A stretch of DNA of 64,000 nucleotides from Protoeuglena noctilucae (taxonomy: Eukaryota). The stretch covers positions 372,001-436,000 of the forward strand of contig OY253668.1 in assembly GCA_958009085.1 (NCBI GenBank). The letters are read 5' to 3'. Made by a program: the position numbers and the translations under genes. Positions within the stretch are counted from its first letter, which is position 1. Each line of letters begins with the position of its first letter. Below the pieces are notes generated by a model. The model saw only the letters and a program-made list of their open reading frames with translations, made no database searches and was not told the origin of the DNA. Positions 1,436 to 60,600 of this stretch are shown here, piece by piece.

Positions 1436-4400
1436 ATGCAGCCCGAGGATGACGGTGAATCGTCGCCCTACCGATTCTGCCTCAGCCGAGACGTGCACGC
1501 TTCCGTCCAGGTCACCGTCCGAAGGTGAGCGCGCTGGTCGCTGCGAGGGGCGTCTTGATAGCACCGATGGATGCATTTGGTCTTGACAGCTAGTCGCCGG
1601 GCCGAATGCCCCGCCCGGGGTCCCCCGCAGCCTCCTGCGCATCGTGCCGACACTGTATGGGAACCTCAGCGCCGCGGACTTCGCGGCTGAAGGCCGCACG
1701 CCGAGTCCGGAAGTTCTATCGATCTCTGCGGACCTCTCGCTGTGCTCCGGGGGCGAGACGGTGGGCCCGCTGGTGACCTTGGGCCCTGCAAACTACAGCG
1801 GGGCACGGCCAGGAGGCGCGGGCCCCAAGCTCTCCCCCCCCGCGGCCAGGGCCCACGCCCAGGCGTCGCAGCAGGATGCGTTGGCGCAAAGCGTTGTTGA
1901 GGCATGCTCGTGGAGGGACCACACGCTGCAGGCGAGGCCGGAGATGCGTCACGATGTCACTGCCCTGGGCCGGTGCGACGTCGGTCACCCCTGATGCACC
2001 TGTGGCGTGCAGATGGGCGCTGCGGTGAAGGATCTGGCGGACGACGCGCAGCTGTGCGTGTGTCTCCGGGCCACGGACGCGACGGGTGCCGAGCAGCTCC
2101 TGGGGTCATCGTGCGTGCCGCTCTTCAGCACACGTGGGCTGCTCAAGAGTGGGTTCAGGTGACGTCCCGAGCCACACAGTGCTGAGATACTCCAGCTGCG
2201 CACGGACTCGGGCGCAGCCCCGTTCATGGGCCCTGTTGACTCTCGGGCCACGCATTGCGAGCACCCTTGTGCTGCTTCTTGGCCCGCAGAGTTCTCTTAG
2301 TTCGGCCCGGGGTGGCTCCCGACCCCGAGGACCCCTCCCGCGTCTCCGGTCGCGTCCCGAGTCAGCCGCCGGGTCCCGAGGGACGCGTGCCGGGGGACCG
2401 TACCACATCGGGGGAGCCTGAGTCAGAGGACTTGGCGAGGACGGCCAGGGCGCTGCGGGCCGTGCAGCGGGCCAAGGACGGGACAGCGAGACGTTCCCCG
2501 TGGCTCGACGCGTGCTGGGGCCCGTCGGGGGAGCTGCCGGAAGTCCTGGCGCGCCACTGCGCCGCCCTGGTGCGTGTGTGCAGCCGCCGCCCTCTAGTTC
2601 TGATCTCGCCCCGACAGGACCATGCGCAAACCGCCTGGCCGCTTAGGTAGCGCTTCCGAACGATGCGTCGTCACCCTTACTCCGCCCTTGCATGCCCAGA
2701 TGGCTGCATGTGCGGGGTCGTTGAGGTCGAGCCAGGGAGGCGCACACCGCAGCGCGGGTCGCGCGGCAGTGGAGCGGCTGCAGGACGTGCTGTGGATGGA
2801 TGAGCATGGATATATGTGGTTCTTGCTCCTGGAATTCCCAAAGAGCACCGTCGACGTCCTGTACAGCTCCTGGGGCGTGGGCGGCGGCCTTGTTCCGAGG
2901 TCCTCGGTGAGTGTGCGGGCCCTCCTTCGACAATCCTGCTGTGGCGGAATCCGCTGACCCGCTTTGAGCGACTGATGCGCTGCTGTGACGCTTCTTGGTT
3001 GCAGCCGATAGCGATGCAAGTGGGTGGCCGCCTGGTCCTGGGCCCCGTGGCCAACGCTGGCCTGCAAATGCAGTCCTTGGCATCCACCGCGCCGGTGAGT
3101 TTGTATGAGCGGTGCTGGGGCGCCGACGACATTCCTTGGCAAAGTTCTATCTGACACCCGTGGTCGGTCCCTCTTGTGCTGGCAGCCCGTGTCCCAGTGC
3201 GGCTGGGGCCATCGCCTGGTGGACCCGGGCGTGCTCCGCGACAACTTGGCGGAAGTGAAGGCGCAGAAGCTGGCGCAGGGTGGCCTGCTGGACCACCAGT
3301 CGGGTGACGCGGTCCCGGACCTCACAGAGAAGGCGCAACTTGAGGCCATCCTCAGGCACCCGTTCCTGAAGGCAAGATGCGTGGTAGAAGGCCACCCTGG
3401 ATACCCGCACCATGCATTGCCACCCTTACCACCCTCACCACCCTCACACCCCTCACCACCCTCACCACCCTCGCCACCCTCGCCACCCTCACCACCCTTG
3501 CCACCCCCACAGACCCTGCAGCCCCAGGAGAGGGCTTTGCTGTGGCGCTTCCGCCGACGCCTGGCTTCCGACCCCCGCAACCTCCCCGTCTTCCTGCGTG
3601 CTGTCGACTGGGGAGTGCCCATGGAGGTCGCCGAAGCCACGCAGCTCATGGCGCGATGGGCGCCGCTGTCAGAGGCCCAGGCATTGGACCTCCTGGGCCC
3701 TGACATGTCCCACCCCGCCGTCCGCACCTGCGCCATTGATGTCCTGCGGTCCACTTCCTCTGATGAGGACCTCGTGCTCTACCTGCCCCAGGCAAGGGCT
3801 ATCAATGGTCTCCACTCAAACTTTGACGCCTGTGACCTCATCCCGCATGACCAGGGCACGCGCTGAGCCCGCGCCTGCGCTCGTGCAGGGTTGCGGGTGA
3901 CTGAGGCTGTGCTTGCGTGTCGCCATGCACGCAGCTCGTCCAGGCGTTGCGGTACGAGCTCACGCCTCCTGAGGAGCTCGAGACGTCCCCGTTGGCCCAG
4001 GCAAGGACAGACATGGACAGGGATTGCTGTTTTGGAAGCACAAGCGATGCTGACAAATGTGCATATGCCGTGCTTACTGCATGCTGACCGCCATGCCTAC
4101 CGCCATGCCTCTCTGTAACAATGCGAAACGCCACGCGTCATCCTGCGCCGTGCCCGCAGTTTCTCGTGCAGCTCGCCCTGCGCAGTCCCGTGCTGGCCAC
4201 GTCGCTGCACTGGTACCTGGTCGCCGAGTGGTCGGACCCCTCTCTGGGCCGAGGCTTCGGCCGCGTGCACGGTCGGCTGATCGAGGAGCTCGCTCAGACG
4301 GGGCCCCAGGGCCGCGCCACGCTCGACGACCTGAGGCAGCAGAACGAGCTGATGGCGTCGCTGGGGCTCATCGTGAAGGAGCTGAGGGCCATGGGGAACT

Positions 4401-57607: not shown

Positions 57608-60600
57608 ATGGGGGCCAAAGGGGAAGGCAGCGACCTGGTCGCCCTGCTGGAGAAGGTGCGCGGGCCGTCGTCTCTGTCGTCGTCGTGTTATATCGCATAT
57701 GATTCGTTCGCGCTGACTTTTTTGCCACCCCCGGCCGCCGAGGTGCCTGTCCAGCCACTTTCCCACCGCCTCGAGCCTTTCTCACTCAGCACGACTCGTG
57801 CGCATCCCCTCCTTACTTGCATCAAACGATGGAGGTCTCTCTCGCACCATGCGTGTCCCCTGGCTGCGGCTGCCCGGGGTTGGCACCGCGCATGTGCAGC
57901 AGCCCCGCGCAGGCACCACTCGCTTCCTTGCGACTTCGTGGGCGTTCCCCGAACCGTTCTTGTCTCGCGGACTGTGCGGCTGCGCGGGACGCATGATGCC
58001 TGTCGCTCGTGTCGCCGGTCCCCCTTTTTGCTTGTGGACATGGAACGGACCTCCATGCGCTCCCCGCGCGCTCTCCTCGCCGACCCCTCAACGCCTTCTC
58101 TTCCCGTTGCGTGCAGCTTCAGTCGGACGGCTCCAATGAGCGCCTCAACCAGGTGCATCGGAACCTGGAGTCCCGGGTGATGCGCCTCACGGACCAGCTC
58201 AACTCCGTCGTCCACGAGCGCCGGGCCCTGCAGCTGAAGAATCGGCGCGTGAATGGCTCGATCAAGCTCGCAGAACTTGAGGTCCCCGAGGAGCAGTCCT
58301 TGGCAGGGTGAGCGGGCGGGCCGGTCCGTGCACATTCATCGCGGGTGGCCCTGCTCCGCGCTTGCTGACCCCTTCCCGGCGACCCCGTTGCCCGCAGCCT
58401 GGACCTGAACTCGCCGTCGTCTCCGTTCGCCACCCAGGAGGAGTCCCTGATCCTCCAGGAGTCGACGCTGCGCAGTCTGCAGACGTCGCTCCCTGCGGGC
58501 CCCAGCACCATGACGGTCGGGACCTTCGAGGCCCAGAAAGTCCGCATTCAGAACACGATCGAGCTGCAACTCGACAAGGCGAGAGCGGGACCCGCGCTGG
58601 CGGGCTGGAGTGATGGGTGATGCTGGTGCACAGGGAAGGGCGCATACGAGAGAAATGCCTGGGCCCTCGGTCGCGCAGGCGCTGGAGGAGGAGCGGCTGG
58701 GCATGACGTACAAGCAGGTGCTGCGTAGGATGAAGGACGAGCTGACCGTCCTGAAAAAGAACGCAGAGGACATGCGGAGGGCGGTGGAGGAGTACGGCAA
58801 CGCCATGCAGCAGGAGAAGCTCAGGCGAGTAGACTGCGTGGAGTCGCACAGGAAGCTCAGGCGTGGGGCTGCACGCACCCGGCAGTGGCAGTGGGAGTGG
58901 GCGGCCGGACAGCCAGCACCCACGCTGGCCTCGGCCCCTTGTCGCAGGCTGCGGGCGGCGCTGCAGAGCCGGCGGGAGGCGCACGCGCTGTGGCAGGACG
59001 TGGTGCGGATCCGCGACGAGGGCCGGAACGTGTGGACGAACAAGATCCATGCGCGGGAGCGGGTGGCGGACATGACGGCGCGGGACCGCGAGGGCATGGA
59101 GCACAGCCGGGCGGAGCGGGAGAAGGCGCGGAAGCGGGCGCAGGCCCTGGCGCGTCGGGAGCTGCAGGTCATGACCACGGCCAAGCTGTCTGATGGCAAG
59201 GTGCCGTTTGAGGGGCCGAAGAGGGACGGGGAGATCGTGGGCGCGACGGAGGAGCAGCTGGCCGTGCGGGACCTGCGGCAGCAGCAGCACAACGAGGAGA
59301 TGCTGGGCGGCGCGGGGCTGGGCATCGCTCCCGCCAAGGCCGAGGTGTCGACGGCGGTCCGGGCCCGGCAGGCCGCGGCGATGAAGTCCATGGAGACGCT
59401 CGACGCCTTCATGCGGGAGGTGCACGCGCGAGACGTGAACGAGCTGATCGAGAAGCTCTTCTCGATGCTGGACAAGGGCGCGGCGGCCAAGGCCCAGAGC
59501 GAGAGCCTCGAGGGGCGGCTGGTGAACCTGCAGGACGACATGCGGGGGCTCGCGGCCGAGAGGGACGCGGAGCGCCTGCGCATCGAGGGCCTGCAGGGCG
59601 CGGACCGCGAGCAGGTGGACGCGATGCGCGGCCGGGTCGACCAGGCGGCGGCCAGGCTGACGCGCGCCCGCCGGAGCATGGTGCGCGCCGAGCAGGGGCT
59701 GTCCCAGGTGCTGATGGGCGTGCGCCTCCTCGCGCGGCGCATCGAGAGCATCGTGGCGCCCGAGGCCCTGCCGGACGGCGAGCTGGACGCGGCCACGCTC
59801 ATCGCGATCCAGTCCAGCCGGCGGTCCAAGCGCCACCTGACGACGGTGGCGGAGGACGACACGGACGGCGAGGCGGCGGTCGTCGAGGACCTCGCGGGGA
59901 TCGACGAGGTCGTCGAGGCCGTGCGGGAGTCCTGGGAGAGGCTGGAGGTGAGTGCTGGTTAGGGTGGCGTTTGAGGCTGCGCGCGCGGGGTGCCGCTGCC
60001 TTGTCTCTGCGTTTGGAGTCACATGGAGTCCTCGCCACCTCTGCTGCAATGGAGCCCGCGACGCCCACCCTTCGTCGCCCCCAGGGCCGCGTGCGGCTGG
60101 TGGTGGAGACGGAGTGGCCCTCCGCGCCCACGTCCGACCCGCGGCTGACCGAGTCCGAGATCGAGGAGGCGCGCAAGACGCGGTCCCAGTCCTACGCGGG
60201 GGTGGGGCGCGCGTCTCGCCCGGTCCTGCCGGGGTCGGACTCACGTCCGGACTCCGCACAGACGGCCGAGTCGGGCCCCAAGGAGGAGGGCCAGGACTCC
60301 CCGAGCGAGAAGCCGGCGCCGAAGCTCGTCAAGAGCGCCAAGTCCTTCAATGCCCAGGTCCTGGCCCTCGTGCCGTCGGCCCCGAAGCCCCAGGACCCCA
60401 ACGCGGCAAAGATCCTCAAGACGCGGTCCCGGCTGGTCAAGCACCAGCAGGAGTACAAGCAGGACATCAACGTGCGCATCCGCTTGAAGTCCCGGGGGTC
60501 GGACCACTCGGACGAGGAGGAGGACTCCATTCCACCGGGGTGACTGCAGTGCTCTGGCTTGCCCACAGCCGTGCTGGCCACGATGCGAGGCTCTGACGAC

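Follow-up and report, generated by a model that had tools for sequence, protein, structure and literature searches.

Frequent GC-AG introns in a 64-kb window of the green alga Protoeuglena noctilucae and the sequence context of their donors

Introns that begin with GC instead of GT were investigated in contig OY253668.1 of Protoeuglena noctilucae. The analysis covered one window of the assembly, by which we mean the whole 64-kb stretch of DNA that was analysed. GC-AG introns were frequent in this window. Fourteen were well supported and up to 22 were counted when model-only introns were included, which corresponded to 11-16% of about 133 introns. Picks that were contradicted by homologues or that lacked the consensus were removed from this tally, and the intron at 19045 was added. 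Nine GC-AG introns were confirmed to be removed at exact GC..AG borders, four by RNA joints, three through the protein P0121 and two through the protein P0242. We consider it most probable (probability about 0.8) that these are ordinary U2-type GC-AG introns, produced by drift from GT to GC under GC pressure and tolerated only where the remaining donor positions compensate. An earlier reading of the window, made from the letters alone and called here the sequence-only reading, had listed 18 GC donors and had estimated that GC-AG introns made up about 15% of 125-130 introns. Both figures agreed with our counts, since the gene model gave 130-135 introns and the GC-AG introns reached 14-22 in the window and 4 of 18 among the RNA junctions. 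Taken over the whole analysis, the GC-AG share was about 11-20%.

RNA contigs were obtained from four metatranscriptome runs of one study (X1-X4), in which 30-45% of the sampled words of window positions 1-10000 were present. The contigs were aligned to positions 1-20000, which were selected because they held 9 of the 18 claimed GC sites. This gave 43 joints. The junctions were read from 15 of these, from the table of pieces and from two loose contig ends; the loose ends contributed two GT-AG junctions. Eighteen junctions were readable, of which 14 were GT-AG and 4 were GC-AG (22%, exact 95% interval 6-48%). This was not an unbiased rate, because the region had been picked for its richness in claimed sites. 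All four RNA-proven GC-AG introns (6732, 8769, 9885 and 19045) were present in each of X1, X2 and X3. The joints at 6732 and 9885 belonged to listed donors, and those at 8769 and 19045 did not. This meant that the earlier observation was slightly understated, because two RNA-proven introns were missing from its list. The X4 contigs were colinear with the genome through introns at 3763-4155, 6866-7193 and 15716-17716, partly where X1-X3 were empty. Since X4 also entered the RNA-proven intron at 6732, this run holds DNA or precursor mRNA, and it says nothing on splicing either way.

Transcript-level junctions were also read from proteins. P0121 (255 amino acids (aa), from a 1012-bp contig) matched the spliced translation of CtpA at 254 of 255 residues after three GC-AG and two GT-AG introns were removed. 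The contig must be spliced, because it was shorter than the 1210-bp genomic span of the exons. At the junction of 34907, the Peptidase_S41 profile ran from position 37 to position 39, and the split codon was position 38. P0242 (674 aa) corresponded, after splicing, to the coiled-coil gene at 57.6-60.8 kb. It agreed at 674 of 674 residues when two GC-AG and three GT-AG introns were removed, and it likely derives from a transcript. The intron at 58825 was read through only by P0241, an unspliced open reading frame (ORF) call. Both P0241 (58655-59959) and P0245 (49621-50316; 231 of 232 residues) were single unspliced ORFs that crossed introns and matched the window at 100%. As ORF calls on genomic DNA they gave no evidence either way, and a prokaryote-style ORF caller seems to be the source of the public protein sets for this assembly.

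Homology was examined using a custom protein-to-genome aligner with intron states and 12 full-length Vps34 homologues. GC outscored all seven control dinucleotides in 12 of the 12 homologues. The control dinucleotides raised the alignment score too, so weight was put on consistently placed sites and not on the score. Pfam coordinates were followed across two further donors. At the donor of 4001, the PI3Ka profile picked up again at 133 with the first residue of the next exon, with 17 positions left for the intervening 22-aa exon. At 23835, the GT-B_Sucrose_synth profile reached 149 at residue 44 of 45; one residue and a split codon followed, and the profile continued with 152 at the first residue of the following exon. 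As a positive control, the Pfam coordinates were equally clean across four GT-AG introns. GT/GC switches were looked for by scanning metagenome contigs with the Vps34 kinase exon. Eighty loci were kept and 34 of them (the first 32 together with L046 and L049) were aligned with P0001, the closest Vps34 homologue, and no scorable switches were found among them. The closest locus (L001) was cDNA-like and intron-less, with 77% GC. In genomic metagenome contigs the Vps34 kinase domain was intron-free, and other apparent introns were alignment noise.

Gene-model controls were then carried out on both strands of the window, which had 67% G+C and 88% G+C at third codon positions. The two-strand model gave 15 gene chains and 130-135 introns, or about 2 per kb. 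The model and its flank matrix were trained on GT donors only, and one extra donor dinucleotide was permitted per run. Permitting GC gained 154.6 nats with 35 uses, and each of 14 control dinucleotides gained 15-52 nats with 5-27 uses. Under penalties of 3, 5 and 7 nats, GC donors were kept 21, 13 and 10 times, compared to 3-7, 0-3 and 0-1 times for nine control dinucleotides. The control picks that survived longest lay at exactly those introns whose donors are GC. The GT+GC parse recovered 15 of the 18 RNA junctions and 17 of the 18 listed sites, the exception being 18350. With GT donors only, 12 of the 18 RNA junctions were recovered, and each proven GC-AG intron was either given a wrong donor or read through. 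When the donor weight matrix was left out, GC was not separated by score (a gain of 98.5 nats, against 71-88 for controls). In those runs it was set apart only by the consensus that emerged, as RAG stood at +3 to +5 in 14 of 78 GC picks and in 0-2 of 56-67 control picks. Banning single donors cost 0.6-8.5 nats. These losses were small even at RNA-proven sites, and they cannot be used to rank sites. Within genes, the motif AGGCRAG showed a strand bias of 28:8 sense to antisense (binomial p = 0.0012). AGGTRAG was likewise sense-biased (21:2), and four control motifs were not.

The sequence around the donors was compared using an evidence-backed set of 14 GC and 26 GT donors. All 14 GC donors had R at +3, A at +4 and G at +5, and 13 of 14 had AG at -2 and -1. 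The GT donors were less strict: A at +4 with G at +5 was found in 14 of 26, AG at -2 and -1 in 14 of 26, and GTGCG in 9 of 26. The mean number of consensus matches out of 6 was 5.2 for GC and 4.1 for GT donors (Mann-Whitney p = 8.5e-6). Among the transcript-level junctions, the full AG/GYRAG context (the slash marks the exon-intron border) held nine GC and five GT donors, whereas other contexts held no GC and 14 GT donors (Fisher p = 0.0006). In the model parse, the full context contained 18 GC and 20 GT donors, and the intron background C/(C+T) was 0.61. At +3, A was found in 4 of 14 GC donors but in 0 of 26 GT donors (p = 0.011), and G in 10 of 14 GC donors. GTGAG and GTGCG accounted for 53 and 21 of the 109 GT donors in the parse. 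The median intron length was 103 nucleotides (nt) for GC-AG and 122 nt for GT introns. The 18 listed donors fitted this context, as all of them read G/GCRAG and 16 of them were preceded by AG. As for whether the listed donors are real, seven were supported at the transcript level, five by homology or Pfam, and five by the gene model and the consensus (Table 1). This was not the case for 18350, where an in-frame GT donor is available at 18332.

Table 1. GC-AG introns of the window, with probable and candidate sites. Donors are written exon/intron; the last column tells whether the donor was in the sequence-only list.
Feature	Positions	Strand	Donor and borders	Evidence	In list
GC-AG intron, Vps34	6732..6895	+	aag/GCGAGC..TCGCAG	RNA joint 6729 to 6894, single GY..AG reading; homologues 12/12	listed
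GC-AG intron, near 5' end of inositol-phosphatase gene	8769..8873	+	cag/GCGAGG..CTCAG	RNA joint 8765 to 8871, GC..AG sole resolution	unlisted
GC-AG intron, inositol-polyphosphate 5-phosphatase-like gene	9885..9971	+	aag/GCGAGT..GCGCAG	RNA joint 9882 to 9970, GC..AG sole resolution	listed
GC-AG intron, 5' end of seipin gene	19045..19191	+	cag/GCGAGA..CCGCAG	RNA joint 19039 to 19187, GC..AG sole resolution; missed by gene model	unlisted
GC-AG intron, CtpA	35212..35305	-	gag/GCAAGT	P0121 spliced match; junction same in 6/9 other homologues	listed
GC-AG intron, CtpA	34982..35082	-	aag/GCGAGC	P0121 spliced match; 7/9 other homologues	listed
GC-AG intron, CtpA, splits IDLR/NNTGG	34813..34907	-	cag/GCGAGC	P0121; 9/9 other homologues	listed
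GC-AG intron, coiled-coil gene ("docking-complex" in the sequence-only reading)	58579..58678	+	aag/GCGAGA	P0242; relative P0243 has same junction	listed
GC-AG intron, coiled-coil gene 57.6-60.8 kb	58825..58947	+	cag/GCGAGT; 123 nt, in frame, open	Absent from P0242, P0243, P0244	listed
GC-AG intron, Vps34	3372..3512	+	aag/GCAAGA; 141 nt, in frame, open	12/12 homologues omit it, exact borders; survives 7-nat penalty	listed
GC-AG intron, Vps34, splits conserved motif	3792..3934	+	cag/GCAAGG	12/12 homologues; PI3Ka profile ends 115 at exon end	listed
GC-AG intron, Vps34	4001..4159	+	cag/GCAAGG	3/12 homologues including closest, P0001; PI3Ka spacing; gene model	listed
GC-AG intron, Vps34	5633..5871	+	ctg/GCGAGT	11/12 homologues; largest gene-model loss on banning, 8.5 nats	listed
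GC-AG intron, sucrose synthase	23835..23997	+	cag/GCGAGG	Continuous Pfam coordinates; survives 7-nat penalty	listed
Probable GC-AG intron, 5' end of Vps34	1932..2012	+	cag/GCGAGG	6/12 homologues; gene model, loss 0.9 nats; N-terminal exon structure uncertain	listed
Probable GC-AG intron, SpoU methylase gene	7908..8065	-	cag/GCGAGC	Gene model; SpoU_methylase coordinates about 52 then 60, only roughly continuous	listed
Probable GC-AG intron, DNAAF5	39836..39928	+	aag/GCGAGA; 93 nt, in frame	Gene model only, loss 3.3 nats; GT-only parse reads through	listed
Probable GC-AG intron, cNMP-binding-domain gene	43352..43442	-	cag/GCAAGG	Gene model only, loss 4.5 nats	listed
Probable GC-AG intron, gene called MBOAT in the sequence-only reading	49614..49704	+	aag/GCGAGT	Gene model (survives 7-nat penalty); closest homologue P0247	listed
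Candidate GC-AG intron, 3' end of MUS81	13828..13992	-	cag/GCGAGG	Gene model only, loss 1.7 nats	unlisted

Abundant GC-AG introns are already known in high-GC algae, and the window provides one more case, which is rich in introns and follows a clear context rule. Their abundance in such algae (GC 65.9-69.5%) was published in 2011 (PMC3033335, Iwata & Gotoh 2011). The available text of that paper gave GC-AG introns as 2100 of 5308 in Aureococcus anophagefferens (39.6%), 831 of 3743 in Micromonas pusilla (22.2%), 1611 of 21048 in Chlorella NC64A (7.65%) and 85 of 4210 in Chlamydomonas reinhardtii (2.0%), with 1.3% over 61 species. The claim that GC-AG introns are exceptionally frequent in the window was appropriate relative to about 1% in animals and plants, but the first three of these algae showed that such a share is not unprecedented (PMC3033335). 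The window resembles them in its 67% GC and in a share far above about 1%, and GC content, the published explanation for those algae, is also the one favoured here. The share here was about twice that of Chlorella NC64A, which is equally GC-rich and intron-dense (PMC3033335), although it was estimated from one window. Pelagophytes have 14-17% GC-AG introns, which were ascribed to GC content in the portion consulted of preprint 10.1101/2024.10.30.620910; they are intron-poor, unlike the window, which is intron-dense at about 2 per kb. The strict dependence on donor context seen here was not met in the available text of PMC3033335 or of the pelagophyte preprint. For human and mouse protein-coding genes, 0.8% GC-AG introns and a +2 mismatch to U1 were given in the available part of PMC7242645. 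The introns of the window were like the U2-type GC-AG introns of animals and plants in their GC...AG borders, the +2 mismatch to U1 and ordinary length. However, they were 10- to 20-fold more frequent, and their +3 position was mostly G (10 of 14) and not A. The donor consensus of GC-AG introns is reportedly AG/GCAAG(T), a further point of likeness. In dinoflagellates, according to the Symbiodinium genome literature, GA donors are used besides GC, and the acceptor is followed by a conserved G. The window was similar to them in its large share of non-GT donors. In contrast, the control runs gave no support to GA or to any other second dinucleotide. The organism here is a green alga different from Aureococcus, Micromonas pusilla and Chlorella NC64A, and Micromonas pusilla is intron-poor. 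Our literature search found no GC-AG report for an alga matching this one, although the organism's own genome paper may contain one. With this window, the few GC-rich algae in which GC-AG introns are known to be abundant are joined by a green alga with dense introns. GT-only gene finders will mis-build a large share of the genes of this organism, and annotation needs a GC-donor model.

The canonical 5' end of U1 small nuclear RNA (snRNA) is ACUUACCUG. C at intron position +2 would be a mismatch to it, and a GC donor could still function if all the other positions pair, that is, if the exon ends in AG and the intron begins with G-C-R-A-G. Strong GC-biased mutation or fixation would keep converting GT to GC. 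Such a change would persist only at compensated donors, where it would be near-neutral, and compensated drift of this kind would have yielded the roughly 11-20% GC-AG introns. The sequence-only reading had offered either altered recognition of the 5' splice site or GT-to-GC drift under strong GC pressure. The drift was the better supported of the two, with 67% GC, GC donors only in the full context, and GC about as common as GT there. GC occurs only at donors whose other positions all pair with U1. This context rule favours compensated drift rather than a change of the spliceosome, and it leaves the several-fold difference among equally GC-rich relatives unexplained.

Several observations weighed against compensated drift. 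The level of GC-AG introns is not determined by GC content alone, as Chlorella NC64A has 7.65% at 67.1% GC and Micromonas RCC299 has 2.7% at 64.1% GC (available text of PMC3033335). The abundance was termed "an enigma" by the authors of the same paper (PMC3033335). We infer both that U1/U6 recognition was unchanged and that the change ran from GT to GC, and for the latter no orthologous introns of relatives were comparable. The same frequency throughout the genome would be an extrapolation, because one 64-kb window may be unrepresentative. The raw count of AGGCRAG was 38, compared to an expected 27.2 +/- 5.2, and 5 of 100 shuffles reached 38, so that it was not above chance. The RNA junction tally rested on about a third of the joints (15/43), and the X4 contig at 3763-4155 is a single contig that crosses the introns at 3792 and 4001 unspliced. 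The five homology-backed GC donors and the two genes of P0121 and P0242 came from the consensus-guided list, which may inflate the strictness of the context.

An alternative is that the splicing machinery of this lineage was altered to accept GC donors, for instance through an extra U1 variant able to pair with C at +2, or through a change in U1-C, U6 or Prp8, so that GC pressure alone is not the cause. We consider this unlikely. In its favour, GC was as common as GT in the full-consensus context, and among algae GC content fails to predict the share when Micromonas pusilla (22.2% at 65.9% GC) is set beside Chlorella NC64A and RCC299 (available text of PMC3033335). RNA base modification or proteins of the U1 small nuclear ribonucleoprotein were proposed as possible causes by the authors of that paper (PMC3033335). 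However, the GC donors here were restricted to contexts that maximise pairing with canonical U1, which is a prediction of unchanged machinery, and most donors were GT, often with weak surroundings such as GTGCG. Aureococcus and Micromonas pusilla, too, have a canonical putative U1 5' end (AUACUUACCUG), as given in the available text of PMC3033335. On this analysis, a changed U1 or U6 would not be required to explain the pattern of GC donors.

It was also considered whether most of the listed donors are annotation artefacts, with nearby GT donors or retention in their place and few real GC-AG introns. The sequence-only reading had stated that several GC donors split invariant motifs with no usable GT alternative. 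This held for the three named motifs (3792, 34907 and 6732), but in-frame GT alternatives were present near 3372, 5633, 49614 and 18350. In addition, the GC introns at 3372, 39836 and 58825 were in frame and open, five listed sites were called by the gene model alone, and each control dinucleotide was picked 5-27 times at zero penalty. Artefacts as the general explanation were nevertheless contradicted for at least nine introns, which were transcript-proven and of which two lay outside the list. If the true rate were 1%, at least 4 GC-AG among 18 RNA junctions would have a probability of 3e-5; for a rate of 2% it would be 4e-4. Such an explanation is very improbable. A slightly smaller chance still was given to recent copies of a spreading introner element with a GC donor. 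The highest published GC-AG shares are those of Aureococcus and Micromonas pusilla, which are also classic introner-rich genomes. However, an all-against-all BLASTN comparison of 135 introns gave three weak short pairs, none of them between two GC-AG introns, and no repeat family, and several GC-AG introns split conserved motifs of otherwise well-conserved genes. Least probable of all were U12-type (minor-spliceosome) introns, for which no supporting point was found. The donors read GCRAG, and neither an RTATCC donor nor a TCCTTRAY branch motif near the 3' end was detected in any of the 135 introns. These sequence features showed that the GC-AG introns of the window are neither U12-type nor copies of one element, and they are most probably ordinary U2-type (major-spliceosome) introns.

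It is conceivable, as a speculative and rather doubtful proposal, that among intron-dense genomes this alga has the largest GC-AG share observed so far (roughly double the share of the equally GC-rich Chlorella NC64A), with T and C at +2 effectively neutral in donors fully complementary to U1 and C forbidden elsewhere. If this pattern held throughout the genome, either a natural mutation-selection balance would give a direct reading of what the U1:+2 mismatch costs, or this cost would have been lowered by a lineage-specific change in 5' splice-site recognition (a U1 variant, U1-C, U6 or Prp8).

Several sites were examined and rejected. The MUS81 donor at 18350 on the minus strand (ggg/GCGAGA) was unsupported: at 18332, 18 nt further downstream, there is an in-frame GT donor (cgg/GTGCGT), which the model took even with GC allowed. 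The model picks at 36133 and 34282 were contradicted by CtpA homologues, which pointed to a GT donor at 36002 and a stop at 34204. For the pick at 37476, a good in-frame GTAAGC donor was present 9 nt downstream. The picks at 29511 and 42803 (gtg/GCGAGC) were indistinguishable from a GT donor 3 nt upstream. Those at 751, 9505, 16588, 33675, 37917, 53719, 63561 and 63839 lacked the consensus and appeared only at low penalty. For the probable intron at 49614, an in-frame GT lies 6 nt upstream at 49608 and was used by the homologue P0249 and by the GT-only parse. None of the four scanned exons of this gene matched Pfam at E <= 0.01, and PDB look-ups with two exons of the SpoU gene gave no usable match.

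The remaining observations concern the genes and contigs of the window. Pfam searches of 134 predicted exons identified PetM, Vps34, SpoU methylase, an inositol-phosphatase-type protein, an MFS transporter, MUS81, seipin, sucrose synthase, asparaginase, CtpA, DNAAF5, a cNMP-binding protein, a DEAD-box helicase and Nup54. Window scans gave no Rfam families, snRNA genes included, and no transfer RNAs. The best named protein matches of Vps34 were green algae (Parachlorella kessleri at 84%, Apatococcus, Auxenochlorella and Myrmecia), as were those of CtpA (Sanguina, Trebouxia and Monoraphidium). The Vps34 intron at 3372-3512 is a proline-rich low-complexity repeat that would read PPSPPS... if retained. 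Its only similarity was to the intron at 25457, and it made the depth of X4 spike to 928 in the bin 3336-4002. One X3 contig carried 26 letters before position 1340, upstream of Vps34, that were absent from the window, and there was no AG acceptor directly before 1340. These letters may come from an upstream exon that lies beyond the window, or the contig may be chimeric. A second X3 contig linked 8147 to 2499 with 32 foreign letters, which indicated that chimeras occur. In the MFS transporter gene, contigs of X1, X2 and X3 matched only 40 nt (12669-12709). The 255 nt on both sides differed and encoded a similar peptide, and these contigs likely represent a paralogue or the copy of another organism.

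Downstream of CtpA, at 32046-33878 on the minus strand, there is a gene with at least five cysteine-rich repeat units containing G(S/P)WC...D. The gene model wrongly joined CtpA to it, and no exon of the repeat gene matched Pfam at E <= 0.01. Sucrose synthase is uncommon among chlorophytes. The gene at 21683-26600 on the plus strand was full-length with about 14 exons and contained SUS_N, SUS_EPBD, GT-B_Sucrose_synth and Glycos_transf_1, while the other genes of the window look chlorophyte.

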